Shown in pieces: positions 8,480 to 24,494 of a DNA stretch of 64,000 nt. Source of the stretch: Actinophytocola sp. (GTDB taxonomy: Bacteria > Actinomycetota > Actinomycetes > Mycobacteriales > Pseudonocardiaceae); NCBI RefSeq assembly GCF_035762905.1, contig NZ_DASUCC010000096.1:3822-67821 (forward strand), written 5' to 3'. The position numbers and the translations under genes were made by a program. The first letter of the stretch is position 1, and each line of letters begins with the position of its first letter. The notes beneath the pieces are model-generated. The model was not told the origin of the DNA. It worked only from the letters and a program-made list of their open reading frames with translations, and did no database searches.

Positions 8480-11260
8480 ATGGCGGTGCAGTTTCGCCTG
8501 CTTGGTGATATTGACGCGCGCGTCGACGACCAGCCGATCACTATTGGTTACGCACAACTGCGGTGCATGCTGGTGGTGTTGTTGATCGAGGCGAATCGCA
8601 CCGTGCCGGTGGACACAATTGTCGCTCGGGTGTGGGGCGACCGCCGGGTTCCGCACCGGCCGCGCGGTGCGGTCCAGCACGACATGACGCTGCTGCGCCG
8701 GGCGCTGCGTCCCGCCGGGGATGTCCGGATCACCTGGCGGTCCACCGGCTACCAGCTCACGGTGGATCCGGACGCGGTCGACGTGTACCGGTTCCGCGCG
8801 CTGATCCGCCTGGCCCGGAGCGCGGCCGACGACGAGCGCGCCGCGGAACTGTTCGAGCAGGCACTGGCCCTGTGGCGGGGGGACCCGCTCGCCGACCTGG
8901 ACACCCCGTGGATCAACTCGGTGCGCGCCACGCTGACCCAGCAGTACCACTCGGCCCAGCTGGATCTCACCGATCTACGGCTCCGCGCCGGCCAACACAC
9001 CACGTTGCTCGCCGAACTCGCCGAACGGGTCGAGCAGCAGCCGCTGGACGAACGCCTGAACGGGCAGTACATGCTCACGCTGTACCGAAACGGCCGCCAG
9101 GCCAGCGCCCTCGAGCACTACCGCCGGCTCTGGCAACGCCTTGCCAAGGAGCTGGGAACGGAGCCGAGCCCGCCACTGCGCCGGCTGCACCACCGGATCC
9201 TCACCGCCGATCCGGTGCTCGACACGGCGGCGGACCGGGCCGCGCGGCCGGTCGTGCCGCGGCAACTGCCGTCGGCGCCCCGGCTGTTCACCGGCCGCGG
9301 CCACGAACTCGCGATGCTCACCGAAACCCTGACCGCACACCGGGAGACCGCCGGGATCTGCGCTATCGGCGGGATTGGCGGGATCGGCAAGACGTGGCTC
9401 GCACTGCACTGGGCCCACCACCATCTCGACCGGTTCCCGGACGGCCAGTTGCACGTGAACCTGCGCGGTTTCGATCCCAGCGGAGAACCGATGACCGCGG
9501 TGACCGCCGTGCGCGGGTTCCTCGACGCCCTCGGCGCCGACCCGGCAACCGTTCCCCCGGATCCGCAGGCCCAGCTCGGCCTGTACCGCAGTCTGCTGGC
9601 GGGCAGGCGGATGCTGATCCTGTTGGACAACGCGCGCGACAGCGGCCAGGTGATCCCGTTGCTGCCGGGCAGCCCGACCTGCGCCGTGCTGGTGACCAGC
9701 CGCAGGCGGCTCACCGGCCTGATCACCGCGCAGTGCGCCCATTCGTTGACCCTCGACGTGCTCACCGAGACCGATGCGCACAGCCTCATCGCCCGCCACC
9801 TCGGCGTGCAGCGACTGGCCGCGGAGCCCCGCGCGGTCGCCGACCTGCTGAGCCACTGTGCCGGACTGCCGCTGGCACTGGGCATCGTGGCCGCCCGTGC
9901 GACGAGCCATCCCGGCTTTCCGCTGGCCGCGCTCGCCGACGAGCTGCACGACCACACCGACCGGCTCGACGCACTCGACGCCGGCGACACCCCGGCGAAC
10001 CTGCGCGCCGTGTTCTCGTGGTCGCGGCACGCGCTGTCCAACGAGGCTGCCGCCGTGTTCCGGTTGCTCGCACTCGCCCCCGGACCCGACATCGGTCTGC
10101 CGGCGGCGGCCAACCTCACCGGGCTACCGATCGCCCGGACCAGAACTCTGCTGCGCGAGCTCAGCGGCAGCCACCTGATCGGGCAACACGGGCCGGGCCG
10201 GTACCGCATGCACGACCTGATCCGGCTCTATGCCACCGATCAGACCCGGCACGAGCCGACCGATACGGCCGCGCTGCGCCGGCTCGTCGACTTCTACCTG
10301 CATACCGCGGCGGCCGCGGAACGGCTGCTCGGGTCGTACCGCCCACCCATCCCGATCGGGGCGCCCGAGCCCGGGTGCCGGCCACACCTGCTGCACGACG
10401 ACACCTCGGCGCTTGCCTGGTTCACCGCGGAGCATCCCAACCTGCTTGCGGCCCAACGTATTTCGCAGGAGCACGGCTGGCACGCGCAGGTCTGGCAGCT
10501 GGCCTGGGCCCTGGACATCTATCACTACCGGCGAGGCCGCCTCGCCGACGGGCTGACCGTGTGGCAGGCGGCGCAGGCGGCCGCCGAACGACTCGGTGAC
10601 CGCGCCACCCAGACCCTCGCGCACCGCCGCCTCGGCTACGCCTGCGCCCGGGTGGGTCGGCACGCCGAAGCCCGCCAGCACCTGCGGCAGGCATTGCGCC
10701 TTGCCGAGGCCACCAACGACCTTCGCGCCCAGGCCCACACGCATTACGTCCTCGCCCAGGCGTTGGCGCAGCACGGCAACGACCGGCAGGCCCTCGAGCA
10801 TGCGCTGAACACCCTGCGCCTGTACCGGACCCTTGACATGCCCGCACGGCAGGCCCGCGCGCTCGACCTCGCCGGACGATGCCACACCAGGCTCGGCGAC
10901 CACGACCAGGCCCGCAGCCATTGCGAAGCCGCCCTCGACCTGTTCCGCCAGCACCATGACCGCGACGGCGAAGCGTCCACATTGGACAACCTGGGACAGA
11001 TCGCACACCGCACCAGCGACCACGACCTGGCCCAGAACTACTACAACCAGGCACTCACCCTGCTCCGCGAACTCGGCAACACCTACCACGAAGCCGAGAC
11101 CCTCGAACACATCGGCCTGACCCAACAACACCTCGGCCAGCTCACCGCGGCCCACGCCAGCTGGCACCAAGCCCGAACCCTCTACCAATCCCAACACCGC
11201 ACCGACGACGCCGACCGGGTCGGCCGGCTTCTCACCGCATGCGACAGGTCAGGTGCGTGA
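8480..11260 (+). CDS. AfsR/SARP-family transcriptional regulator (wHTH-BTAD + NB-ARC ATPase + TPR)
   Basis: N-terminus MAVQFRLLGDI...; BTAD region (LWRGDPLADL, RLWQRLAKELGTEPSP); P-loop GIGGIGKTWLA; GLPLAL motif; C-terminal TPR repeats. RBS GAGGAGG before ATG 8480. Confidence 0.9.
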   Translation: MAVQFRLLGDIDARVDDQPITIGYAQLRCMLVVLLIEANRTVPVDTIVARVWGDRRVPHRPRGAVQHDMTLLRRALRPAGDVRITWRSTGYQLTVDPDAVDVYRFRALIRLARSAADDERAAELFEQALALWRGDPLADLDTPWINSVRATLTQQYHSAQLDLTDLRLRAGQHTTLLAELAERVEQQPLDERLNGQYMLTLYRNGRQASALEHYRRLWQRLAKELGTEPSPPLRRLHHRILTADPVLDTAADRAARPVVPRQLPSAPRLFTGRGHELAMLTETLTAHRETAGICAIGGIGGIGKTWLALHWAHHHLDRFPDGQLHVNLRGFDPSGEPMTAVTAVRGFLDALGADPATVPPDPQAQLGLYRSLLAGRRMLILLDNARDSGQVIPLLPGSPTCAVLVTSRRRLTGLITAQCAHSLTLDVLTETDAHSLIARHLGVQRLAAEPRAVADLLSHCAGLPLALGIVAARATSHPGFPLAALADELHDHTDRLDALDAGDTPANLRAVFSWSRHALSNEAAAVFRLLALAPGPDIGLPAAANLTGLPIARTRTLLRELSGSHLIGQHGPGRYRMHDLIRLYATDQTRHEPTDTAALRRLVDFYLHTAAAAERLLGSYRPPIPIGAPEPGCRPHLLHDDTSALAWFTAEHPNLLAAQRISQEHGWHAQVWQLAWALDIYHYRRGRLADGLTVWQAAQAAAERLGDRATQTLAHRRLGYACARVGRHAEARQHLRQALRLAEATNDLRAQAHTHYVLAQALAQHGNDRQALEHALNTLRLYRTLDMPARQARALDLAGRCHTRLGDHDQARSHCEAALDLFRQHHDRDGEASTLDNLGQIAHRTSDHDLAQNYYNQALTLLRELGNTYHEAETLEHIGLTQQHLGQLTAAHASWHQARTLYQSQHRTDDADRVGRLLTACDRSGA

Positions 11261-11313
11261 CCGAACCGGTCGCCCGGAACTATGGCGTCCGGTTGGGGCG
11301 GTGCGGAGAATCG

Positions 11314-12261
11314 ATGATCGTGGCGCATCCTGAGGAGTTGGCGGGCCTGGATCTGTACCGGGTCTGGGCCGGTGCGGGGGAGTTGGCCGGCGGGTTCGAT
11401 CCGTTCCGGTTCCAGCAGCGGATGGCGGCCTACCGGTCGATGATCCGCAACACCAACCCGGGCCAGCGGTTCGGCGCGGACAACCGGCGCAACCCGTTGT
11501 GGGGGTTGATGTTTCAGCACCAGTGGCAGTTCCGCACCGGTCGGCTGGGCGATCCCGCCAAGCAGGACGGATGGATTGATCCGGACGCGCCGTGGGGGTA
11601 TGGCAACTACACGCTGTGTGTGCCGCCGTATCTGGGTGCCTCGGCCGCCGGAGTGGTGCCGGACCTGCCGGTGGCCGATCCACCGGGCGGGCGCCGGTTC
11701 CGTTACGTGGTGGGCGGAGTCGTCCCGAGGGAGTTGGCCAGGGGCGTGGCCGACTGGCGCGCCTACTTCACCCTGGTGGCGGGCGGCGGATCGGCCGATT
11801 CGGAGCCGGTCCGGCTGGCCTTGTGGAAGGCGCACAAGAGCTGTCTGGACGTGGTGGTCGACGCGATCACCGGTATCGACGCCCCGCCGTGGCCGGAGTT
11901 GGAGATCACGTTCCTGCGCGGTTGGTGCCGGATGGTCGACTACCTGTGGGTGGCGGCCTGGCCGACCGACTTCGCCTTCATGACCGAGCACGGCCTCGAC
12001 GTGCTGCCCGAGCGACTGCTCGGCACGCCGGCCGACCTGCGCGCGCTGCCGGACAAGGCCCGCCGCAACACCGCCAACATCCTGCGCCTTGCCGGCACGC
12101 CGGCCTGGCGCTACCGGCTCAACCTCGCGCTGTGGAAACGGGTCATGCGCACCCGGGCAGCCCGCGACCAGGTGCTGCCCCTGCTCGACGCGGTGTTCAA
12201 CCCCCGCCCCGACAACGCCGCGCAACGCCGCAGGCTCCTCGGCTACCTGCTGCGCCCATGA
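11314..12261 (+). CDS. Hypothetical protein, possibly Leg1/DUF781-related
   Basis: Good GC3 bias. GGAG RBS before ATG 11314. The motif NPLWGLMFQHQWQFRTGRLGDP resembles, from memory only, the conserved LWGLPLQxGWQxRxGRLxDP block of vertebrate LEG1. Confidence 0.55.
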   Translation: MIVAHPEELAGLDLYRVWAGAGELAGGFDPFRFQQRMAAYRSMIRNTNPGQRFGADNRRNPLWGLMFQHQWQFRTGRLGDPAKQDGWIDPDAPWGYGNYTLCVPPYLGASAAGVVPDLPVADPPGGRRFRYVVGGVVPRELARGVADWRAYFTLVAGGGSADSEPVRLALWKAHKSCLDVVVDAITGIDAPPWPELEITFLRGWCRMVDYLWVAAWPTDFAFMTEHGLDVLPERLLGTPADLRALPDKARRNTANILRLAGTPAWRYRLNLALWKRVMRTRAARDQVLPLLDAVFNPRPDNAAQRRRLLGYLLRP

Positions 12262-12282
12262 CCCTGATCGCATCCGGTTCGG

Positions 12283-13173
12283 TCAACGGGGTCCGAGCAC
12301 CTGGCGGGCCACGTGGTCCTGGCGCTGCCTGAGTGCCAGCCATTCGCCGGTCAGGTCCGCGTGCGCGGTCAGCCAATCGTCCTGGAGTTCGGCCAAGCGG
12401 GCGTAGGCCGTGTCGAGGTATCCGGTTTCCCGTTTGCACCGCAGGTCCGCGCGCAGCGCCGGGTCGGTGGCCGCAACGACGTCATCCGGCAGCTTGTCCA
12501 GCAGGTCGCCCGGGTTCGCGGCGTCGATCCCGAACCGGTTCACACACGTCCGCCAGCGCTGGGTGGCGGCGAGGAAGGCCGGATCCCGGTCGAGTCGTTC
12601 CCTGGCGTCGCGTTCGCCGTCGTAGAGTCGCAGCCGCAACTCCGACGCCCGTTGTCGCTGGTCGCCGAGCAGGCGGTACTCCGCGTCGGCCAGGCAGCCG
12701 GTGCCCGGCGACGATATCTCCAACCGTTCGCCGCGCGCGACCATGCGCTGGTCGGGATCGCCGAACAGCACGCGGGCGTACTCCTCGCTGTGGACGGGCT
12801 CGGCCGGCGCCGGCTCGGTCGTGAGGTCGTCGAGCGACTCCAGCCCGAACGGCTGCAGCGCGGCAAGTGCCTCGGCCTCGGTGATGTCCTCGACGTGGGT
12901 GGCGTAGCTCAGGCCGTGTGCGGCCATGCAGTTGGTGACGAGCACCTCCCGTGCCTCGGAGATCCGTCGGTCCTGGTCGTCGGGCACGTACATCATGCGG
13001 TACATGGGCGGGACGACGCGGGTGTCGGCCTGCCCGGTGGCGACGTGCGGCGCCGAGCCGGACAGCAGCAGCGCGGTGAGCCCGGCGGCGAGCGTGGCCG
13101 CGATCGCGCGGACGTGCCGTCCCGGCGGCGAGCCGCCGGAACGGGCACGGTCGTGGTTCAGTTGCTGAGGCAT
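12283..13173 (-). CDS. Hypothetical secreted/membrane-anchored protein
   Basis: Hydrophobic N-terminus VRAIAATLAAGLTALLLSG after MPQQLNH. Acidic, helical remainder with 4 Cys. Start uncertain: ATG 13173 overlaps the upstream stop by 16 nt. Confidence 0.5.
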   Translation of the reverse strand: MPQQLNHDRARSGGSPPGRHVRAIAATLAAGLTALLLSGSAPHVATGQADTRVVPPMYRMMYVPDDQDRRISEAREVLVTNCMAAHGLSYATHVEDITEAEALAALQPFGLESLDDLTTEPAPAEPVHSEEYARVLFGDPDQRMVARGERLEISSPGTGCLADAEYRLLGDQRQRASELRLRLYDGERDARERLDRDPAFLAATQRWRTCVNRFGIDAANPGDLLDKLPDDVVAATDPALRADLRCKRETGYLDTAYARLAELQDDWLTAHADLTGEWLALRQRQDHVARQVLGPR

Positions 13174-13718
13174 ACGACCGAAGTCCTCGGCCTCAAGCGC
13201 AGGGAACTGGCCCTCTCCCGCAGATTGCTCGGCAGGGAATTGACGGTCGCACCCGGGTTCACGCAGAACAGGAAACCCGAGTGGAACTCCCCGTCGTAGT
13301 AGTGGCTTTCGCGGTTGCCGGTGGAGGAGTTGCTGGCCGCCCACGCGTTGTTGTTGACGGGTTGGCCGGCGCCGAACCCGTCGCCGCCGCCGAACGTGTC
13401 ATTTCGGAAGTGGTCGACGGAGTCGAAGTACTGCTTCTTCGACGAGAACACGTCGAAGAAGAACAGGCAATGGAAGCCGTTGCTGCAGTTGGCGCCGGCC
13501 ACCGTCGGCGGCTGCGCGCCCGATTTCGCCGGGTCCGGTCTCGAGATCCTCGGGTCCGCACCGGCATCGGCCGACGGTTGGCCGGCCGTGGCGCCGGTGT
13601 CGTCCGCGGTCGCCGCGATCGGGCCGGCGAGCACGAGCGACCCGACGACGGCCGCGACGATCGCCGCGATACCGGGCGCCCGCCGGTTCCGTCCAAACAG
13701 GACAGGAGCGAGTTTCAC
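13158..13718 (-). CDS. Secreted protein, peptidase-inhibitor I36 (SMPI / beta-gamma-crystallin-like) family candidate
   Basis: Signal peptide, Pro/Ala linker, then CSNGFHCLFFF...NNNAWAASNSS...FCVNPG...RASSLRL, which fits the I36 pattern (C-x-G-x-x-C-x-F ... N-D/N-x-A-S-S). Confidence 0.55.
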   Translation of the reverse strand: MKLAPVLFGRNRRAPGIAAIVAAVVGSLVLAGPIAATADDTGATAGQPSADAGADPRISRPDPAKSGAQPPTVAGANCSNGFHCLFFFDVFSSKKQYFDSVDHFRNDTFGGGDGFGAGQPVNNNAWAASNSSTGNRESHYYDGEFHSGFLFCVNPGATVNSLPSNLRERASSLRLRPRTSVVCLSN

Positions 13719-13880
13719 TGAAAACCCCCTTCGTGGATGGCCGCGACCACAGGATCTGCTTCCCCCCGGCTCGGTCCGGGTTCCTGGCCCAGCCGTGGCA
13801 CAGCCTGGTGGCGGGGCGGTGCAAAAACCTTGAACGAATCCGACGGGCCACTGTGGTGACGCGCGAAACGTGCCAGGTCG

Positions 13881-16800
13881 CTAGTGGGCGAGTTGGCCGA
13901 GCCGGTGCGGCTCGGGCTGTGTCCTCTCGCACCAGACCCGGGCACTCGCGGTACAGGCGTAGAGCGCATCGGGGTTCCACCCGGCCGCCGGGCCGGGTGG
14001 TGGCGCCGGGTCCAGGCCGAGGGTTCGCGCGGCGGCGTCGGCGAAGCCGATCGGAACCGGCAGGCCGAGTTCACGGCGAAGGGTGTCCCAGCGCAGCGCC
14101 AGCTCCTGGCTGGCCGCCTCGTCACCGAGATCGGCGGCGATCAGGGCGGCTTCCAGGACGCCGGTGAACGTGAGCTTGAACTGGGAACGGCCGGTGGCTG
14201 CCGTGAAACCGCCGCACAGGGTCCGCCGGGCCGCCGCCGGCCGGCCACTGCGCCGTTGTGCCTCCGCGAGCAGGATCTGCAGATACACCAGGCGCGAAGC
14301 CAGCGGCGGATACGTGGCCCGCAGCTCCGCCCACGCCTGCTCGAGGAAGCGGCATGCGGTGTCCACCTGCCCGCTGGCGAGGTAGAACAAGGCGATCACG
14401 CGACGGGGGCTGTCCTGCTCGGCGGCGTGCGCCACATCGCCGAGCAGTTCGAGGAGGCGGTCGACCAGACGCGCCGCATCGGCAAGGTCACCGAGGCCGA
14501 GCGCCGCCTCGATCCGCACGGTCAACATCGCGGCCAGTGACGAGGGGCGATGTCGACTCCCCGGCCGTCATAGTCGAGGCTCAACGCCAGTGCCTGCTCG
14601 TACCGGCCCCACGTGGCCAGCGCGATGCCGGCCGCGTTGGTCACGGTGAGCACGTCGTCGTCCTCCGCCGACCGGCGCGCCACGGCCGCGGTCGACTCGA
14701 TGTCGGACAGGACCGACGGGTCGAGCAGAGCCTGTTTCGCGTTGAGGATCCCGGCCCTTCCCTCCAGGAACTCCCGGGGCCGAAGGGTTCTCAGGTCACC
14801 GATCGTCTCCTGCATGAGGCGCAGCCCGCGCAGCTCGTCCTCGGTGAACTTGACGAGCAGCGCCCGGTGGAACCGGAGCAGGGCGTGCACCTCGGACCGC
14901 TCCTCGATGCCCGGTACCGACAGGGCGCGGTCGAGCAGGCCGCGGCCCTCGGCGAGGTAGCCGGGGTGCAGCAGCCAGAACTCGAAGATCCGGGCGACGA
15001 TCTCGGCCGCGTCGAGAGCGCGGCCATTCTGGAAGCCGAATTCCAGGCATTGCCGCAGGTTCGCCGCGTCCGGCTCCATCGCGCGCAGGCCCGCGACCCG
15101 GTGGTGGTAGCGGGGCAGCCGATCGACCCGGTTCGCCCGGGCCAGCCAGTGATCAAGGTGACGGGCCGCGGTGAGCGCGTGCTCGCCGAAGTCCGTCAGG
15201 TGCCTTGCCGCGAAGTTCCTGATCACTTCGAGCAGGCGGTACCGCCGCGAACCGTCCTGGTCAAACGGTTGCACCAGCGAGCGGTCGACCAGGGCGGCGA
15301 GGGTCGCCGCCGTCCGGTCGCCATCCAGTGGTGCGAACCCGCAGACCACCTCGGAGTCCGGTGCTCCGAACCCGTCCACGAACACCGACAGGCGCGCGAA
15401 GAGCCGGCGCTGCGGTTCGGTCAACAGCTGGAACGACCAGTCGAGCGTCGCGTCCAACGTGCGGTGGCGCGAGTCATTTCTCGCGCTGGTACGGAAGAGC
15501 AGGGTCATGTTGTGGCCCAGCCGGTAGACCAGATCATCGAAGGCGAAGGTCCTGGCCCGCGCGGCCACCAGTTCCAGCGCCAGCGGCAGTCCGTCGAGCC
15601 GGCGGCAGATCTCCGCGATGTACTGGAGGTCCCGGTCGGTGACGGTGACCGACGGGGCCGAGTTCCGGACCCGTTCGACGAACATCGCCACGGCAGGGTT
15701 GGACAGGTCCGCGGCCCGGTCCCGTGCCGGTACGGCCAGCGGCTCGAGGGTGAACATGGCCTCGCCCGACACGCTCAACGGCTGCCGGGACGTGGTCAGG
15801 ATGACGAGATCCGGGCAGTTGCCGAGAAGTCGCAGCACGAGCTCGCCGACCTCGGCCGCGAGGTGCTCGCAGTTGTCGAGTACCAGCAGGCTCGGGCCGC
15901 CGCCCAGGATTCGTTCGACCGTGACGAACGGGTCCCGGCCGTCGTCCGCCCCACCGAGCAGCGCGCGCAGCGTGTGCACGGCCTGCCGCACCGACGGGGC
16001 CGTCGCGAGCGGCACGGCGACGCCGGACATGCGGCGTCGCCGCGCCACGGTATGGGCGACGTCCAGCGCGATCGCGGTCTTGCCGCAGCCGCCCACGCCC
16101 GTCACGGTGACCAGCCTGTTCCGCTCCAGAAGGCGGATCAGCCCGGCGCGCTCGTCCTCGCGCCCGATCAGGCGGGTGAGGTGTGGTCGCAGTCCGCGCC
16201 ACAGCGGTTCGTCGCGCTGTCGGTGTGCGGGCGGCCGCGGAACAGCCGAGGTCGCCCGCAGGATCTCCTGATGAACGGTGCGGAGCCCGGATCCGGGTTC
16301 GGCGCCCAGTTCGCGCACGATCCGGCGGCGAGTCGCGGCGTAGCACTCCAGGGCTTCGGCGCTGCGCCCGACCGCGTGCAGCGCGCGCATGAGTTGCCCG
16401 ACGAGCGACTCGGCGAACGGATATTCGGACACCAGCATATTGAGCTGGTCGATCACCAGGCCATGCTCACCCATTTTCAGTTCCAGATCGGACCATTCCA
16501 CGGCAGCATTGATGCGGTACTGCTCGAGCTGATGCCGGGCGCCGTCCGCCCATTCCCCGACGATTCCGTCCAACGGTCTGCCCCGCCATTGGTGAAGCGC
16601 CTCCCGCAGCAGCGATCGCCGCTGCTGGTCGGCCGCCTGGCGGTCGCGTGCCTGCTCAACCAGGTGCCGGAACCGTTGGCAATCGATCGTGGTGGCCGGG
16701 ACGTCGAGAACATATCCGCCGGTGATGCGCCGGAGTGGAACCCCGCGGTCGACGCCCGGCAGCTGACGCCGCAGTACCGCGCGCAGCCGGGCCATGTAAC

Positions 16801-18694: not shown

Positions 18695-21148
18695 TCACTG
18701 CTTATTCGCCGGGGTGGTTGGGTCGATGGGCCAGGGGTGTTTGGGGTAGCGGCCGCGTAGTTCGGTGCGTACCTGTGGGTATCCGTTTTGCCAGAAGGAT
18801 TCGAGGTCGCTGGTGACGGCGACGGGTCGGCCGGCGGGGGAGAGCAGGTGCAGCAGGAGGGGAACCTGGCCGTCGGCGATGGTGGGGGTGTTGGTCCAGC
18901 CGAAGGCTTCCTGCACCTTGATCGGCAGGATGGGTGGGTTGGTCGAGTAGTCGATGCGGAGGTGTGCGCCGGAGGGCACGGTGAGCCGGTCGGGGGCCAG
19001 TTCGTCGAGTCGGGTGGCGGCCGGCCAGGGCCGCAGCCGGGAGATCGCGTCGTGGGTGGCGATGCGTTGCAGGTCGGCGCGGCGGCGTGCGGTGGCCAGG
19101 TCGGGTCCGAGCCAGGTGTCCAGGGTTTCCAGCAGGGTCTGGTCGTCGACCGGTGGCCATGGTGGGCCGAGGGTTCGGTGCAGGAACGCCAGCCGTTGCC
19201 GCAGACGGGTCGCGCTGGTGGTCCAACGCAGCAGGCCCAGGCCTTCCCGGCGGAGTCCGGCGAGGAGCGCGCGGTGCAGGTCGGCGCGGTCGGGTTGGGT
19301 CAGTTGTCGTTCGTGCAGCACGATGGCGCCGAGTCGGTCGACCCTGCGGGCGAGGATGTCGCCGTCGGCCCACAGCACTTCGTCGGCGGTGGAGAGCAGG
19401 GCGGGGGCGGCCCGCTGCGCCAGTTGCCGGTCGGCCCGGGCGGCCAGCCGGATTTTGCCGTGGACGCGGGCGGGATCGCGGTCGACGCTGGCCACCGCGA
19501 GCCACTCGGCGTCGGTGCTGGCGTCGGTTTCGGCCGCGGTGCCGCCGGCCATCAGGTACACGCGTGATCCGGTGGCGCGCCGCCGGGCGAGGCGTTCCGG
19601 GTGGGCCAACGCCACGACCAGGGCCGGGTCGGGCCGTTCGGTGCCGGGTCGGTCGGCGACCAGTGCGGAGAGTCTGCGCACCTCGCGTCGCCAGCGGCGG
19701 GCGGCGTCGCTGTGGTCGTCGGCCCGCAACCGTCGCACCGCGGCCTCGAGATCGGTGCCGGTGGCCAGGGTGTCGTCGTCGAGCAGGGCCACCACTTCGG
19801 CCGCGGGCCGGGCGCCGATCGCGTCCGCGCCGTCGAGCAGGGCTCTGGCCAGCCGCGGGTGCAGGCCGACCCCGGCGATGCGCCGGCCGCGTTCGGTGAT
19901 CTTGCCGGCGGGGTCCAGGGCGCCAAGCGCGGTGAGCACCTCCCGGCCGGCGGCCAGTGGGCCGGCAGGTGGCGGGTCCCACCAGGCCAGGCTCGCGCCG
20001 TCGGGTGTGCCCCAGCAGGCCAGTTCCAGTGCGAGCCTGGTCAGGTCGGTGGTCCTGATCTCCGGTTCCGGATACCGGGGCAGGGTGGCGTGCTCGTGCT
20101 CGGGCCAGCACCGGTAGACCCGGCCCGGTGCCTGCCGGCCGGCGCGCCCGGCGCGCTGCTCGGCGACGGCCGCCGACACCCTGGTGGTGATCAGCCCGGT
20201 CAGGCCCCGGCGGTGGTCCATCCGGGCCACCCGGGCGAGGCCGGCGTCCACGACCGCGCGGACCCCCGGGACGGTCAGGCTGGACTCGGCGACCGCGGTG
20301 GCCAGCACCACCCGAGGCCCGGCGCCCGGCCGCAGTGCCGCGTCCTGCCGCGCGGCCGGCAGCCGTCCGTGCAGCGGCAGCACGGTCAGGCCGCCGAGTA
20401 GCGCCGTGACCCGGTGGATCTCCGCGACACCGGGCAGGAAGACCAGCACATCACCGTCCGTTTCGGACAGTGCTCTGTGGACGGTGCGGGCCACGCAGCC
20501 CTCGATGCGTTCGGTTCGGGCCGGCGGTGTGTAGGTCACCTCGACCGGGTAGGCCCGCACGTCGGCGCGCAACACCGGGGTGGCTTCGCCGAGCAACGCG
20601 GCGAGCCGGTCGGTGGCCACGGTCGCCGATGTGGCCAGCAGGCGCAGGTCCGGGCGCAGTCCCGCACGCACGTCCAGCAGCAGGGTCAGCAACAGGTCGG
20701 CGTCCAGATGCCGTTCGTGGCACTCGTCGAGCAGCACCGCGTCCGTGCCGGACAGTTCCGGATCGGATTGCAACCGGCGGACCAACAGCCCGGAGGTGAC
20801 CACCTCGATCCGGGTGGCCTTGGAGACCCGCCGATCGCCGCGCACCGCGTAGCCCACGGTGGCACCCACCGGCTCGCCCAGCAGTTCGGCCATCCGGGCC
20901 GCGGCGGCCCTGGCGGCCAGCCGGCGTGGCTCGGCGACCACGATCCGACCGGACATACCGGCCGCCATGGCCAGCGGAACCACCGTCGTCTTGCCCGCGC
21001 CCGGCGCCGCGACCAACACCGCGGCACCGGGCTCGGCAAGCGCGGCCAGGACCTCACCCAACACCGCCCGCACCGGCAGCTCGGGTAGATCGACGGAAAG
21101 GTCCACGACACCAGTGTGCTGCACCGCCCCAGCCAGACAGACCGACAC
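18695..21148 (-). CDS. hrpB: ATP-dependent RNA helicase HrpB (DEAH-box)
   Basis: Walker A APGAGKTT, DEAH box LLDECHERHLDAD, helicase C motifs, and a C-terminal HrpB-type domain ending ...RGRYPKHPWP. The start may instead be GTG 21106. Confidence 0.85.
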   Translation of the reverse strand: MSVCLAGAVQHTGVVDLSVDLPELPVRAVLGEVLAALAEPGAAVLVAAPGAGKTTVVPLAMAAGMSGRIVVAEPRRLAARAAAARMAELLGEPVGATVGYAVRGDRRVSKATRIEVVTSGLLVRRLQSDPELSGTDAVLLDECHERHLDADLLLTLLLDVRAGLRPDLRLLATSATVATDRLAALLGEATPVLRADVRAYPVEVTYTPPARTERIEGCVARTVHRALSETDGDVLVFLPGVAEIHRVTALLGGLTVLPLHGRLPAARQDAALRPGAGPRVVLATAVAESSLTVPGVRAVVDAGLARVARMDHRRGLTGLITTRVSAAVAEQRAGRAGRQAPGRVYRCWPEHEHATLPRYPEPEIRTTDLTRLALELACWGTPDGASLAWWDPPPAGPLAAGREVLTALGALDPAGKITERGRRIAGVGLHPRLARALLDGADAIGARPAAEVVALLDDDTLATGTDLEAAVRRLRADDHSDAARRWRREVRRLSALVADRPGTERPDPALVVALAHPERLARRRATGSRVYLMAGGTAAETDASTDAEWLAVASVDRDPARVHGKIRLAARADRQLAQRAAPALLSTADEVLWADGDILARRVDRLGAIVLHERQLTQPDRADLHRALLAGLRREGLGLLRWTTSATRLRQRLAFLHRTLGPPWPPVDDQTLLETLDTWLGPDLATARRRADLQRIATHDAISRLRPWPAATRLDELAPDRLTVPSGAHLRIDYSTNPPILPIKVQEAFGWTNTPTIADGQVPLLLHLLSPAGRPVAVTSDLESFWQNGYPQVRTELRGRYPKHPWPIDPTTPANKQ

Positions 21149-21261
21149 CTACCGTGCCGGCCAAGTGGGGCGATTAGGAAATCGTGGGCACGTGGCCGGT
21201 TTCGGCCACACCGCATTATCGAACCGCACCGTCGCCCGCGATCACCTAGGAAACAACCTCA

Positions 21262-21339
21262 CCGAAAGTGCCTGCCGACCCACGCGACAGGGGAGCTTCA
21301 GCAGCCCTCAGCACCGCAGGTCGGAAGGGCACTTTCCGG
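21262..21339. other. Long imperfect hairpin in lower-GC intergenic spacer (candidate structured RNA)
   Basis: GAAAGTGCC (21264-21272) pairs with GGCACTTTC (21328-21336), and CCGACC (21275-21280) pairs with GGTCGG (21319-21324). A possible outer 7-bp helix joins ACCTAGG (21244-21250) and CCTAGGT (21383-21389). Confidence 0.3.
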
Positions 21340-21764
21340 AGCAGCGCACCGACCCGGACGAGCATTCACCGGTGGATTCACACCTAGGTAATGCCGCCGA
21401 GCCACCACAACACCTACGCCATCAGGAATGGTTGGATGGCCCTGCGCGTGGGCAGCTATTATCAATTATCTGATCACCCGATCGGCGTAACATGATGCCC
21501 ATTGTTGGTCGGTCAGTCACGACGGGGAACTGTCGATCATCCCCCACATGGGCCCTTGTGTCTCGCCTGAAGCATAGATAGTGTTGGCCGCGTTCTGATG
21601 TTGCTTGACCCGATGGGGGACTTGTTCTGGGGCCTTGTTAATCCATTGAGATGTCCATTGTTGACAGTGTCTCACTGCTGTTCAGTCCCAGATTCAGCCT
21701 TGCCGGTACGCCGCGCGCCGCGAATCCGCGGCCACCAAGTACGGAGGTAGAAGGGAGGATAGCC

Positions 21765-21824
21765 ATGACCAACGAGGAGTTCATCGAGTCCCGCTCGGCG
21801 GGTGAGGCCGCCACCAAGTGGTGA
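21765..21824 (+). CDS. Unannotated 19-aa ORF (MTNEEFIESRSAGEAATKW), candidate precursor or leader peptide
   Basis: Tandem SD ACGGAGGT/AAGGGAGGA lies 5 nt upstream of the ATG. 17 of 18 sense codons end in G/C although the surrounding spacer is AT-richer. Followed by a stem-loop and the FGE-fold gene. Confidence 0.5.
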   Translation: MTNEEFIESRSAGEAATKW

Positions 21825-21853
21825 TGGTCCAGAGGTAGGTAACGCAAGACAGG

Positions 21854-21882
21854 GCCGGGTGGCGGTCGGATCGCCACCCGGC
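21854..21882 (+). terminator. GC stem-loop between small ORF and FGE-fold gene (attenuator or processing/stability element)
   Basis: GCCGGGTGGCG-gtcggat-CGCCACCCGGC forms an 11-bp stem. It sits about 30 nt after the small-ORF stop and 30 nt before GTG 21913. No U-tract. Confidence 0.5.
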
Positions 21883-21912
21883 GCCCTTGCCGGCGATTAT
21901 ACGGGAGTTCAT

Positions 21913-23277
21913 GTGTTCGATGACCTGCTGGAACCGTCGGCCCTGGCGGTTCTTGACGACCGGGGGTACGTGGATCGGTTGCGTGCCCTTGAGAAGGCTT
22001 TCGGCCAGCGCACCGAGTCGGACGAGCTGGTCGAGGAACTGTGCGAGCTGGCGGTCGGGCACGCGGACTGGAACGTGCGGCGGATCGCGGTGCAGACGCT
22101 CGCCGACCGGTTCACCGGGTCCGCGGCGGCGCGGGCGGCGATCTGTTCGGCGACGCACGACGACGTGGACTGGGTGGCGTTCACCGCCATTCGCGCGGCC
22201 GGGGAGCACCGGCTGCCGGAGGCGGTCGAACATATGATCAGAATTTCCGGCTGGCCGAGCAACTTCAGCAAACCGGGCTACTCCCGGAAACCGGTTGGCT
22301 GCGGCGCGGCATTCGCAAAACGGGCATTGTGGAACTATTTCGGCTCCCGTGACCCGGACGAGCTCAGGAAACTGGAGGATCGGCATTTCGCGGACAAGCA
22401 CGCCGCGGTCGCGGCTGCTCGCCGGCCCCGTGATCTGCGGGACGCCGTCCTGGTGCCGGCCGGCCCGTTCATCGCCGGCGCCAACGTCCATGAGGTCGGA
22501 CCATTTCAAATGGACAGTTCGGACAACCCGCTGCGGGTCGTCGAGCTGCCCGCGTTCCACATCGACCGGACCACGGTGACCAATGCCCGGTACGCCGAGT
22601 TCCTCGCCGACGCCATGGGGAGCACCGAGTTCGCGCATCCGGACGAGCCGCCGGGCAAGGACTACACCCCGACGCACTGGCGGGATCCCCGGTTCAACGA
22701 CCCGTCGTTCCCGGTCGTCGGCGTCGACTGGTACGACGCGTGGGCCTTCGCCCGGTGGGCCGGCGGGCGGCTGCCGTCCGAGGACGAGTGGGAAAAGGCG
22801 GCCCGCGGGACGGACGGCCGGACCTATCCGTGGGGCAACGAGTGGGACCGGGACAAGGCGCAGTCGGTGCTGTCCGCCTACGACCGCGAGGAGTTGCGCG
22901 ACCTGAGCGAGCTCGAGGAGTTGCTGGTGCGCACCACGCTGGAGTGGCCACGGAATCCCGTCCTGGCCGCGGACGCGTTGCCGGCCGGGGCCAGCCCGTA
23001 CGGTGCGCGGAACATGGCCGGCAACGTCTGGGAGCTCACGCGCAGCAACTTCTTCACTCGCAAGGACATGGCCCCGTTCTTCAAGGGCAGGCGCGGCCCG
23101 GAGTTCATGAACCGGCCGGAGGCGTTCCACGTGCTGCGCGGCGGTACCTGGACCTCGCCGCCGGTGTGCCTCACGACGTTCTATCGCGGCAAGGACCTGT
23201 TGACCGACCGGCACAACGAGGTCGGCTTCCGGTGCGTCTACGAGGCGACCGCGGAGGAGGTGCCGGCGCATGCCTGA
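21913..23277 (+). CDS. HEAT-repeat + FGE-sulfatase (SUMF1/EgtB/PvdO) domain protein
   Basis: C-terminal domain motifs: RVVELPAFHIDRTTVTNARYAEF, VVGVDWYDAWAFARWAGGRLPSEDEWEKAARG, NMAGNVWELT, LRGGTWTS, EVGFRCV. N-terminal HEAT/PBS-lyase-type repeats (DWNVRRIAVQTLA, DVDWVAFTAIRAAG). Start set at GTG 21913, which has a GGGAG RBS; the track start at 21802 lies inside the small ORF. Confidence 0.8.
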   Translation: MFDDLLEPSALAVLDDRGYVDRLRALEKAFGQRTESDELVEELCELAVGHADWNVRRIAVQTLADRFTGSAAARAAICSATHDDVDWVAFTAIRAAGEHRLPEAVEHMIRISGWPSNFSKPGYSRKPVGCGAAFAKRALWNYFGSRDPDELRKLEDRHFADKHAAVAAARRPRDLRDAVLVPAGPFIAGANVHEVGPFQMDSSDNPLRVVELPAFHIDRTTVTNARYAEFLADAMGSTEFAHPDEPPGKDYTPTHWRDPRFNDPSFPVVGVDWYDAWAFARWAGGRLPSEDEWEKAARGTDGRTYPWGNEWDRDKAQSVLSAYDREELRDLSELEELLVRTTLEWPRNPVLAADALPAGASPYGARNMAGNVWELTRSNFFTRKDMAPFFKGRRGPEFMNRPEAFHVLRGGTWTSPPVCLTTFYRGKDLLTDRHNEVGFRCVYEATAEEVPAHA

Positions 23278-23848
23278 GTCCCGCGCCGCACCGGCGGCGG
23301 AGTTCGCCGAGGCCGTCGAGGAACTCAAGCAGCGTCAAGACATCAAGGCCAGACGGTTCCACTTCACACGGCGCGACGGCACCTTCGGGCCGCTCGTCGG
23401 GGCCCCGTTCGACGTGGCGAAGTTCCTGGCCCGGCCGCTGGTCGGCCGGATCGCGCTCGCCGGGCCCGTGATCCGCCCGTTCTGGTACGTCTGGGAGGAG
23501 GAGTGCTTCTGGAAGCTCACCGGTGCATGGTCCATTTTGGACGAGCGACTCCGCGCCGATCCCAACTTCGAGCTGGTGATCGACACCTGCGACCTGGACA
23601 CCGGGGAGACCCGGCAGGTCATCGCGCACGGCAAGGCCTACGTGGTCGACTTCGACGTCGAGCGCGGCCGGCGCATCCTGAGCCGGTACGCGGGCCCGTA
23701 CGAGGACGACTGGGATCCGAGGTTCCAGCTGCGCCCCGACCCGTCGGTGTACGGCACCCGGCTCGCCAAGATGGTGCCGGACGACATGTGGGCCGTCGAG
23801 TTGTCGTTCCGGCCGGCCTGGCCGGACCGGCCGATCAACTGGCGTTGA
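23270..23848 (+). CDS. Hypothetical protein, PNPOx-like split-barrel fold candidate
   Basis: ATG 23270 overlaps the upstream stop (ATGCCTGA). The pattern LVGRIALAGPVIRPFWYVWEEECFWKLTGAWSILDERLRADPNFELVID...GKAYVV resembles pyridoxamine-5'-phosphate-oxidase-family barrels. Confidence 0.6.
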   Translation: MPESRAAPAAEFAEAVEELKQRQDIKARRFHFTRRDGTFGPLVGAPFDVAKFLARPLVGRIALAGPVIRPFWYVWEEECFWKLTGAWSILDERLRADPNFELVIDTCDLDTGETRQVIAHGKAYVVDFDVERGRRILSRYAGPYEDDWDPRFQLRPDPSVYGTRLAKMVPDDMWAVELSFRPAWPDRPINWR

Positions 23849-23861
23849 GGGAGCGCACCGC

Positions 23862-24494
23862 GTGCCGAGCACCTCGACCATTCTCCTGTTCCTCGCGGTG
23901 ACCGCGACGCTGTTCCTCATCCCCGGCCCGTCGGTGCTCTACATCGTGACCAGAAGCGTTGCCCAGGGCCGCGCGGCCGGTTTGATCTCCGTCCTCGGTA
24001 TGCACGTGGGCACGATTCCCTACATGCTCGCCACCGCGTTGGGGTTGTCCGCGCTGCTGACCGCCTCGTCGACCGCCTTCCACATCATCAGGTATCTCGG
24101 CGCCGCCTATCTGATCTGGTTGGGTGTCCAGAAGTTGTGGTCCCTGAGAAAGCAGGGTGAGGCGGACAGCGAGCCACCGACGGTGTCCCTGGCGCGCATA
24201 TTCCGTCAGGCGGTGGTGGTCAGCATCCTCAACCCCAAGACGCTGATCTTCTTCGCCGCGCTCCTGCCGCAGTTCATCGACCCGTCCCACGGCTCAGTCG
24301 CGGTGCAGGTCGCGTTCTTCTGCGCGGGCTTCCTCGTACTCGGCGTGATCAGCGACGGAACCTACGCACTGCTGTCCAGCACGCTGGCCGGCCGGCTACG
24401 CCACACCGCGCGAAGCCGCCGCGTCCTGGACCGTTTCAGCGGCATCGTCTACCTGATGCTCGGCGCGTTCGCAGCCGTCATCGCCGAATCCTGA
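23862..24494 (+). CDS. LysE/RhtB family amino-acid/metabolite exporter
   Basis: N-terminus LFLIPGPSVLYIV, six hydrophobic segments, about 210 aa. GAGGGAG RBS before GTG 23862. Confidence 0.8.
   Translation: MPSTSTILLFLAVTATLFLIPGPSVLYIVTRSVAQGRAAGLISVLGMHVGTIPYMLATALGLSALLTASSTAFHIIRYLGAAYLIWLGVQKLWSLRKQGEADSEPPTVSLARIFRQAVVVSILNPKTLIFFAALLPQFIDPSHGSVAVQVAFFCAGFLVLGVISDGTYALLSSTLAGRLRHTARSRRVLDRFSGIVYLMLGAFAAVIAES

Follow-up and report, generated by a model that had tools for sequence, protein, structure and literature searches.

Does an unannotated 19-codon open reading frame, lying in front of an operon for an FGE-fold enzyme, a PNPOx-like protein and a LysE exporter, encode the precursor of a peptide-derived metabolite, or is it a regulatory leader or simply a chance open frame? 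The locus lies in a 64-kb stretch of DNA from Actinophytocola sp., referred to here in its entirety as the window. A preliminary description, made from the sequence alone, proposed a candidate RiPP-like operon, with a leader-peptide attenuator as the alternative. We find that the small ORF is a genuine, conserved gene, which, together with a downstream hairpin and an unusual FGE-fold enzyme gene, is present in at least 140 species-level genomes from two phyla. The comparative evidence makes it a strong candidate for an undescribed family of peptide-derived natural products, although no modification, mass shift or product has been observed.

Inspection of the sequence confirmed each of the features proposed. 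The ORF occupies positions 21765–21824 of the + strand and encodes MTNEEFIESRSAGEAATKW, with 18 of its 19 sense codons ending in G or C (17 of 18 without the ATG). It is preceded by tandem Shine-Dalgarno sequences, ACGGAGGT at 21741–21748 and AAGGGAGGA at 21751–21759, the latter 5 nt before ATG 21765, and a GGAGG-type site is found 5–9 nt before the ATG in the homologous loci sampled. The spacer in which these elements lie runs from about 21149 to 21764 and has a GC content of 0.54–0.65, against 0.70–0.81 in the flanking genes. A match to the M23 RNA motif (Rfam RF03006) in the window scored 30.8 bits, below the gathering threshold of 41.2, and there was no hit in seven homologous loci; the upstream UTR is not conserved. 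An inverted repeat at 21854–21882, starting 29 nt after the stop codon, has 14-nt arms that are 93% complementary and a dG of −26 kcal/mol, and it lacks a U-tract.

Downstream of this hairpin, a Shine-Dalgarno sequence (GGGAG, 21903–21907) lies 5 nt before GTG 21913, the start of a + strand gene (21913–23277) for a protein of 454 residues that is identical over its full length to the deposited protein (P0001 in our set). Pfam assigns HEAT_2 (E 1e-8) and, over residues 176–442, FGE-sulfatase (PF03781, E 1e-45), while no NCBIfam equivalog is reached. The stop codon of this gene overlaps by 8 nt the start of the next (ATGCCTGA, 23270–23277), a + strand gene (23270–23848) for a PNPOx-like protein of 192 residues that is translationally coupled to the FGE gene. 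The Pfam match of this protein to Pyridox_ox_2 is sub-threshold (23.6 bits against 27), but its AF2 model (pLDDT 76) matches PNPOx-like split barrels in the PDB, with a Foldseek probability of 1.00 to 2hq9, 1rfe, 4qvb and others and a TM-score of up to 0.68 on the target; these structural neighbours bind FMN, FAD, F420 or haem. The last gene of the operon (23862–24494, + strand) starts 13 nt after the PNPOx stop and encodes a LysE/RhtB-family exporter of 210 residues (Pfam LysE, E 4e-37; NCBIfam homoserine/threonine efflux subfamily).

To establish whether the small ORF is under selection, we examined 85 loci carrying orthologues of the HEAT/FGE protein at 57–100% identity. A loose motif hit exactly once in each of the 85 sources, which amount to about 0.9 Mb searched over six frames and include the whole window, and every hit was on the + strand upstream of the FGE orthologue. 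The 85 ORFs comprise 74 distinct nucleotide versions and 57 distinct peptides. F6, R10, K18 and W19 are invariant, and position 9 is always Ser or Thr, encoded by TCN, AGC and ACN codons. The stop codon varies among TAA, TGA and TAG at a fixed position, and third codon positions are the most variable. The value of pN/pS over the whole ORF is nevertheless only about 0.6–0.7, because half of the positions are free to vary. Two conserved blocks, F-[ILM]-x-[ST]-R-[DE] and [TS]-K-W, are separated by a variable linker of 5–8 residues. No duplication of the precursor was seen in any locus.

The linkage extends to more distant relatives. A small ORF with a C-terminal Lys-Trp, together with a hairpin, precedes 5 of 6 relatives with only 30–39% identity in the N-domain, including that of the alphaproteobacterium Stappia. 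Across all lineages, only the C-terminal Lys-Trp survives, although it is followed by Glu-Ala in three loci and by Pro-Asp in one. The leaders are acidic and 17–22 aa in the close family, acidic and 40 aa in Stappia, and basic and 24–32 aa in metagenomic clades, a pattern like that of peptide-derived small molecules such as PQQ and mycofactocin, where the reacting residues are fixed. A hairpin with dG ≤ −20 kcal/mol is found in 78 of the 85 close loci, mostly 10–40 nt after the stop, with different stem sequences in different lineages and some compensatory changes within Streptomyces.

The genes accompanying this core vary. The neighbourhoods include aldolase-LLM-C-A-PCP-aminotransferase-PNPOx-MFS-MT; MBL-esterase-AsnB-like-AldDH-aminotransferase with ATP-grasp, PhyH and MFS; PNPOx-MFS-MT-P450-amino-acid ligase; PhyH, a second FGE, Peptidase_M16 and MFS (in the locus we number L091); and NRPS, MT, MFS, MBL and CobW in Stappia. 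The PNPOx-like family of the window is shared between three of the actinobacterial operon types that we distinguish, B, C and D, and Stappia; the homologues in types B and D have 50–60% identity and that in Stappia 30% (E 3e-10). The MBL protein and an unknown 366-aa protein are shared between the Streptomyces type A operons and Stappia. Peptide and hairpin stay at the head of the operon even where another gene lies between the peptide and FGE genes, as in locus L039 and in Stappia.

The preliminary description had proposed, as a test of its own reading, that a short ORF with a conserved Lys-Trp end and a stem-loop should be syntenic upstream of homologues, and this is clearly the case; neither lack of conservation of the ORF nor regular occurrence of the enzyme pair without a peptide was encountered. 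Three corrections are needed, however. The LysE exporter, which had been included in the layout, is not a conserved component and occurs only in operons of the window's own type (loci L001–L003, L005 and L009), other types having MFS exporters instead. The PNPOx-like family is frequent but not universal, since most Streptomyces operons carry a different PNPOx_N protein. Finally, the N-terminal motif F-[ILM]-x-[ST]-R-[DE] is clade-specific.

Overall, we favour, with moderate confidence, an interpretation in which the ORF encodes a ribosomal substrate, as precursor or scaffold, and the HEAT/FGE-fold protein is its dedicated modifying enzyme. In the sequence of events that we infer, one promoter in the AT-richer spacer drives the operon, and the hairpin acts as a leaky terminator or stabiliser, so that peptide message exceeds enzyme message; a hairpin placed directly after a strongly translated small gene fits a substrate made in excess of its enzyme. 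The enzyme would bind the clade-specific leader box, probably through its HEAT domain, and place the Lys-Trp end in the FGE-fold domain, a fold known to modify peptides in the case of the sulfatase CxPxR motif, for an oxidative, probably metal-dependent, step, after which the PNPOx-like protein would perform a second redox step. No RRE/PqqD domain was found in the profile searches, the AF2 model of the catalytic domain was poor, so that no active-site geometry supports the proposed metal site, and the window's operon has no protease. The product of this minimal operon is most likely a small Lys-Trp- or Trp-derived amino-acid-like compound exported through LysE; LysE-type exporters carry amino-acid-sized solutes, so it must be released, if it is released at all, by a peptidase encoded elsewhere. 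In other genomes, the same core would be elaborated by NRPS modules, ATP-grasp ligases, P450, PhyH, methyltransferases and peptidases.

Strict linkage of peptide and enzyme would equally be produced by a cis-regulatory upstream ORF or by a small subunit. In the former case, translation of the ORF, with for example a metabolite-responsive pause at Lys-Trp-stop, would control read-through of the hairpin and thereby expression of enzymes acting on free small molecules. The strong Shine-Dalgarno sequence, the hairpin just upstream of the enzyme's ribosome binding site, a linkage that holds whatever the other neighbours and the conservation of residues at the very C-terminus, where arrest peptides act, are all in keeping with this, and in the window itself, the codons for AATKW can pair with the left arm of the hairpin (−22 kcal/mol, z = −2.2). 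Across the 78 loci with a hairpin, however, pairing of the ORF or spacer with the left arm is no better than in shuffled controls (mean z +0.39), with only 3 loci below −2 and these at inconsistent positions. Moreover, there is a single Lys codon and a single Trp codon with no run of regulatory codons, the distance from the conserved Arg to Trp varies from 8 to 11 residues, leader length and charge differ between clades, and Lys-Trp is not always at the stop. Most hairpins start 15–20 nt after the stop, beyond the reach of a ribosome sitting on the stop codon, and they lack U-tracts; in L039 and Stappia, another gene intervenes before FGE. We therefore regard a regulatory leader or arrest peptide as unlikely.

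The alternative that the peptide is a stable, chemically unaltered partner of the enzyme, such as a micro-subunit, chaperone, inhibitor or metal-delivery tag bound to the HEAT domain, seems more doubtful still. It is consistent with the strict co-occurrence and co-orientation, with the role of HEAT repeats as protein- or peptide-binding modules and with the CobW metallochaperone in the Stappia operon. The net charge of the N-domain is about −5 with acidic leaders and about −10 with basic leaders, but this weak trend towards charge complementarity rests on 11 pairs and is not significant. The presence of a hairpin rather than translational coupling between peptide and enzyme argues against 1:1 stoichiometry, conservation of only two C-terminal residues is unusual for a structural subunit and typical for a reacting end, and the Peptidase_M16, NRPS modules, ligases and exporters in the neighbourhoods point to a product. 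That the ORF is a chance open frame can be dismissed. It is too short for gene callers, and those variants long enough to look up (20 aa or more) are absent from the protein collections, but its position, frame, length, stop position and key residues are conserved in 85 of 85 loci across many actinobacterial genera, with synonymous variation, in a UTR that is otherwise not conserved.

If the peptide is the substrate, this would define a new RiPP-like class, for which we found no curated model or paper, with a genomic signature that can be searched for directly and that occurs in several biosynthetic architectures, including RiPP–NRPS hybrids. It would assign a role to a compact, so far generically named branch of the very large FGE-sulfatase superfamily and to a PNPOx-like family that reaches no Pfam or NCBIfam cutoff. 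Gene callers systematically miss the key gene, only the 40-aa Stappia version being called, as 'hypothetical protein'. More speculatively, and with less likelihood than not, the encoded Lys-Trp may itself be the building block, processed in the manner of PQQ by an oxygen- and metal-dependent FGE-fold enzyme that has lost the copper cysteines (candidate ligands H242, H434 and E436), together with the PNPOx-like redox partner, to give a cross-linked or oxidised Lys-Trp unit, for example a free tryptophylquinone-like compound, which bacteria in two phyla would then decorate and export. This would be the first peptide-maturation chemistry assigned to the FGE fold outside Cys-to-formylglycine conversion.

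Comparison with characterised proteins bears on the nature of the enzyme. The closest solved relative of the catalytic domain by sequence is CalU17 from the calicheamicin cluster (PDB 7ml6, 6vqp; E 6e-25), followed by EgtB and FGE. CalU17 shares the family-specific insertion and is also encoded in an actinobacterial biosynthetic cluster, but it has no HEAT domain, and we found no described function or partner peptide for it. EgtB, OvoA and SenA share the C-terminal FGE-like domain, and database names for the protein derive from this similarity, but the scores are far below the cutoffs (EgtB, TIGR03440, 89.9 bits against 360; SenA, 75.6 against 420). The DinB-type N-terminal domain that holds the iron-binding histidines is absent and is replaced by HEAT repeats, and there are no ergothioneine genes nearby. 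Formylglycine-generating enzyme has the same catalytic-domain fold, which binds and oxidises a short peptide motif, and the clade motif F-x-x-[ST]-R has the same spacing as C-x-P-[SA]-R, a resemblance only. The peptide, however, has no conserved Cys and no CxPxR motif, and there is no sulfatase gene in the operon. In a family alignment, H242, D428, H434 and E436 are family-specific invariants and there is no conserved Cys pair; if the copper site of FGE is taken as GGSxxCxxxxC, the nearly invariant S415 occupies the position of the first cysteine, and the second is not conserved; Cys419 exists only in the acidic-leader actinobacterial clade.

As a system, the locus recalls TnaC-type arrest peptides and leader-peptide attenuators in having a short upstream ORF with conserved residues and a downstream RNA element, but it differs in the pairing, regulatory codons, spacing, length and C-terminal features considered above. 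In scaffold-peptide pathways with PEARL enzymes (3-thiaglutamate, ammosamide), chemistry on the C-terminal residue of a small ribosomal peptide gives an amino-acid-derived small molecule, ammosamide chemistry also operates on a C-terminal Trp, and some clusters combine the peptide with ligases or NRPS parts; here there is no LanB-like PEARL ligase, the Trp is genetically encoded rather than appended from tRNA, and the constant enzyme is FGE-fold. Mycofactocin is likewise actinobacterial, with a short peptide, MftA, whose C-terminal dipeptide, Val-Tyr, is the reacting unit and a flavin-type oxidoreductase taking part downstream, but it needs the radical-SAM enzyme MftC, the RRE protein MftB and the peptidase MftE, none of which is present here. 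In PQQ biosynthesis, a very small peptide, PqqA, is encoded at the head of the operon and followed by a hairpin, two fixed residues are the actual building blocks (Glu and Tyr there, Lys and Trp in the reading proposed here) and oxidative enzymes are used; an MBL-fold protein, PqqB-like in fold, occurs in Streptomyces type A and in Stappia, and a PqqF-like M16 peptidase in L091. There is, however, no radical-SAM enzyme (PqqE), no PqqD/RRE and no PqqC, the constant enzyme being a HEAT/FGE-fold protein, and the neighbourhoods look like secondary metabolism with exporters, not cofactor supply.

Inspection of the region showed that it reads exactly as given in the preliminary description. Two Shine-Dalgarno-like sites, at 21741-21748 and 21751-21759, precede ATG 21765, which opens a 19-codon ORF, MTNEEFIESRSAGEAATKW, ending at TGA 21822-21824. 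A stem-loop with 14-nt arms lies at 21854-21882, with a dG of about -26 kcal/mol, and GGGAG at 21903-21907 precedes GTG 21913, the start of a 454-aa protein. The stop codon of this gene overlaps the ATG of a gene for a 192-aa protein (ATGCCTGA, 23270-23277), and a 210-aa protein starts 13 nt after that gene. The spacer upstream (21149-21764) has a GC content of 0.54-0.65, against 0.70-0.81 in the flanking genes. The proposed domain assignments also hold. The 454-aa protein has HEAT_2 and FGE-sulfatase domains and is identical to a deposited protein from an Actinophytocola MAG, which confirms the GTG 21913 start, and the 210-aa protein is LysE. The 192-aa protein reaches only a sub-threshold Pyridox_ox_2 score, but an AlphaFold2 model (pLDDT 76) matches PNPOx-like split barrels in the PDB with a probability of 1.00.

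To establish whether the small ORF is real, we retrieved 80 genome loci encoding orthologues of the HEAT/FGE protein at 57-81% identity, from Streptomyces, Kitasatospora, Nocardia, Lentzea, Umezawaea, Kutzneria, Actinoplanes, Actinoallomurus, Trebonia, Kineosporia, Nesterenkonia and others; in total, 140 species-level genomes matched. A tblastn search followed by motif searches revealed the ORF just upstream of the enzyme gene in every locus. A deliberately loose pattern hit exactly once in each of 85 sources, among them the complete 64-kb window on both strands, so that there were no false positives in about 0.9 Mb; no tandem or extra precursor copies were found. The ORFs comprise 74 distinct nucleotide versions and 57 distinct peptides, mostly of 19 aa (range 17-22), and they carry the signs of selection at the protein level. 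Residues F6, R10, K18 and W19 are invariant, with the exception of the peptide of Streptomyces sp. HNM0574 (locus L039), MTEEQIIESRDSEDIDAAEKW, which has Ile in place of the otherwise invariant Phe; Nesterenkonia (L075) has a very similar peptide. Position 9 is always Ser or Thr, encoded by TCN, AGC and ACN codons, the Arg uses CGT, CGC and CGG, and the stop is TAA, TGA or TAG at a fixed place. Third codon positions are the most variable (1.09 bits against 0.68 and 0.64). We conclude that this is a translated, selected gene that gene callers miss.

The upstream UTR outside the Shine-Dalgarno sequence is not alignable. A match to the Rfam M23 RNA motif at 21704-21755 (+), immediately before the Shine-Dalgarno sequence of the small ORF, is below threshold (30.8 bits against a gathering score of 41.2) and absent from seven homologous loci, and is probably a chance GC hairpin plus Shine-Dalgarno sequence. 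Two collinear short direct repeats (GCGGCCACCAAGT / GCCGCCACCAAGT, and GTACGGAGGTAG / GTCCAGAGGTAG) relate 21728-21750 to 21807-21838 (+), such that the stretch just upstream of the ORF resembles the 3' end of the ORF itself (AATKW) plus the start of its trailer. This may be a vestige of a duplicated peptide gene; the right arm of the hairpin (CGCCACCCGG) also resembles it. Further upstream, two copies of CACCTAGG(A/T)AA, each containing the palindrome CCTAGG, lie 138 nt apart at 21241-21253 and 21381-21392, bracketing a segment (21263-21381) with a weak Rfam match to the actinobacterial sRNA Ms_IGR-7 (26.7 bits against a threshold of 45). This could be an operator pair or a small RNA in the divergent promoter region shared with the HrpB-like helicase gene (18695-21148, minus strand).

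A GC hairpin with a dG of -20 kcal/mol or stronger follows the stop codon in 78 of 85 loci, usually starting 10-40 nt downstream. The stem sequences differ between lineages, and none has a U-tract. Within Streptomyces, the outer 8 bp are invariant and two inner pairs show compensatory changes. The RBS of the enzyme follows within about 25 nt, so transcription must read through the hairpin.

Neighbourhood clustering and annotated contigs revealed several operon architectures around the constant peptide-FGE pair. In most Streptomyces (type A), the peptide and FGE genes are followed by genes for an MBL-fold protein, an esterase, an AsnB-like protein, an unknown protein of 366 aa, an aldehyde dehydrogenase, an aminotransferase and a PNPOx_N protein, with divergent PhyH, ATP-grasp and MFS genes. 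In S. violaceusniger and relatives (type B), the order is peptide, FGE, class II aldolase, luciferase-like monooxygenase, C, A-PCP, aminotransferase, PNPOx-like, MFS and methyltransferase. The type B layout, which is Streptomyces-like, is also found in L011, a record titled Rhodococcus rhodnii NRRL B-16535, whose FGE protein is 80% identical to the Actinophytocola one; this is unexpected for Rhodococcus and suggests horizontal transfer or a mislabelled assembly. Type C, found in the window, Umezawaea, Lentzea, Kutzneria and two Streptomyces, consists of peptide, FGE, PNPOx-like and LysE. In type D, from S. cinnamoneus and others, the peptide ends KWEA, and the order is peptide, FGE, PNPOx-like, MFS, methyltransferase, P450 and L-amino-acid ligase. 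In type E, from a Mycobacteriales MAG (L086), the peptide and FGE genes are followed by a gene for an unknown protein of 350 aa, 43% identical to the unknown 366-aa protein of type A, with a divergent P450 gene.

The PNPOx-like protein of the window is 50-60% identical to those of types B and D but is unrelated by BLAST to the PNPOx_N protein of type A, and LysE is specific to type C. The PNPOx-like protein and the LysE exporter, which the preliminary description had included in its proposed operon, are therefore not universal partners. In L039 (2201-3927), the peptide and its hairpin are separated from the FGE gene by a gene of about 525 aa, a paralogue of the gene just upstream.

An exhaustive HMMER search with the N-terminal 175 residues of the enzyme found only 14 representatives at E <= 1e-10 among 1.84 billion, and the HEAT/FGE family is therefore compact. 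Six distant members, with 30-39% identity in this domain, were located on contigs. In the alphaproteobacterium Stappia (L088-L090, about 8900-15740), an acidic 40-aa peptide, MSHEYEVEIDEVTLSEAETLVRMQDGDAGNDEDSQIAEKW, annotated as 'hypothetical protein' and seen on 65 contigs, is followed by a hairpin and then by genes for an MBL-fold protein, FGE, CobW (a COG0523 metallochaperone), an unknown 366-aa protein and a homologue of the window's PNPOx-like protein (30%, E 3e-10 to 7e-15); genes for a methyltransferase, a two-module A-PCP-C-A-PCP NRPS, a paralogue of the unknown protein and an MFS protein are divergent. The unknown protein belongs to a family of about 350-366 aa with no Pfam match, which co-occurs with the peptide/FGE pair in Streptomyces type A (L081 15540-16640), in Stappia as two paralogues (L088 14112-15212 and 1622-2686 (minus strand)) and in the Mycobacteriales MAG (L086 11342-12394), its members being 35-43% identical.

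The remaining distant members include four metagenomic loci with a peptide. In L091 (621-6793), a basic 32-aa peptide, MKHETHARKWAALRAQREGAPRPTGAHYKWPD, which contains KW twice (ARKWAAL and, at the stop, HYKWPD), is followed by a hairpin and by genes for FGE, PhyH, a second FGE-fold paralogue, Peptidase_M16 and an MFS exporter. In L092, MIRMWAAKWRKTRNLRTEPTILFAISKW is followed by FGE, with no clear hairpin in the 70 nt after the stop on inspection by eye. In L094, a peptide ending PVLPDNMKW is followed by a hairpin and FGE, and in L095, MARIWRSKRAMDSRQSLPRFTTKW is followed by a hairpin and genes for FGE, a family-5 solute-binding protein, a methyltransferase and an MFS protein. The only exception found is L093 (480-2360), a lower-GC relative of the HEAT/FGE protein with no KW-terminal ORF within 1.3 kb upstream, whose open frame extends about 120 codons beyond the annotated start. 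Leader length, charge and sequence change completely between clades, and the C-terminal Lys-Trp is the single universal feature of the peptides. A trend towards charge complementarity between leader and HEAT domain goes in the expected direction, but there are too few pairs for it to carry weight.

The enzyme reaches no NCBIfam equivalog (EgtB 89.9 bits against a cutoff of 360). Its closest solved relative is CalU17 from the calicheamicin cluster, followed by EgtB and FGE; a PDB search with the C-terminal 108 residues alone found nothing. The iron-binding DinB domain of EgtB is replaced by HEAT repeats. In an alignment including the distant members, and assuming the usual form of the FGE motif as reference, the position of the first copper cysteine of FGE is a nearly invariant Ser, and the second cysteine is present only in one clade. 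The family-wide invariants include H242, D428, H434 and E436, which could form a metal site, and the CobW chaperone gene in the Stappia operon fits a metalloenzyme. These last points are inference; the AlphaFold2 model, although confident in the HEAT domain, falls below pLDDT 50 for residues 334-437 and is unreliable in the catalytic half. The enzyme otherwise matches only its generic Pfam domains, HEAT_2 and FGE-sulfatase, and the PNPOx-like protein stays below the Pfam cutoff and has no NCBIfam hit. Searches of Pfam and NCBIfam with the peptide, padded to 20 aa, gave nothing, the five variants of 20-22 aa are not in the protein collection searched, and the database names are generic. Literature searches on FGE-fold or SUMF1 proteins in RiPP contexts, on CalU17 and on C-terminal Trp scaffold peptides revealed no description of an FGE-fold peptide maturase or of this peptide family, although most subscription journals were outside their scope and prior description cannot be ruled out completely; the one paper that mentions both terms concerns bufferin fusions.

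We favour, with moderate confidence, the reading that the peptide is the substrate or scaffold and that its Lys-Trp end is oxidatively modified by the FGE-fold enzyme. The PNPOx-like protein would then act as a second redox enzyme and, in the window, LysE would export an amino-acid-sized product. A regulatory role for the small ORF has weak support. Pairing between the ORF or spacer and the left arm of the hairpin, as expected for classical attenuation, was sought in 78 loci against shuffled sequences and gave no signal; no anti-terminator pairing exists family-wide (mean z +0.39). Moreover, there are no regulatory codon runs, the Arg-to-Trp spacing is 8-11 residues, KW can be followed by EA or PD, and other genes can separate the peptide from the FGE gene. 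We consider this alternative unlikely, though the comparative evidence cannot exclude it, and a non-substrate micro-subunit remains a third and still more doubtful possibility.

The preliminary description, which had proposed a candidate RiPP-like operon, is thus confirmed in its observations and supported, as a candidate, in its interpretation. The signature is simple, widespread and unannotated, and the four-gene operon of the window makes it directly testable. Four elements recur: a tiny, strongly translated peptide at the head of the operon; a presumably leaky hairpin; a strictly linked peptide-fold enzyme; and invariant, presumably reacting residues with free leaders, set among variable tailoring, ligase, NRPS, peptidase and exporter genes. 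This is the pattern of peptide-derived metabolites such as PQQ, mycofactocin, pantocin and the PEARL scaffold pathways; what appears to be new in this candidate RiPP-like system is the class-defining enzyme and the core motif.
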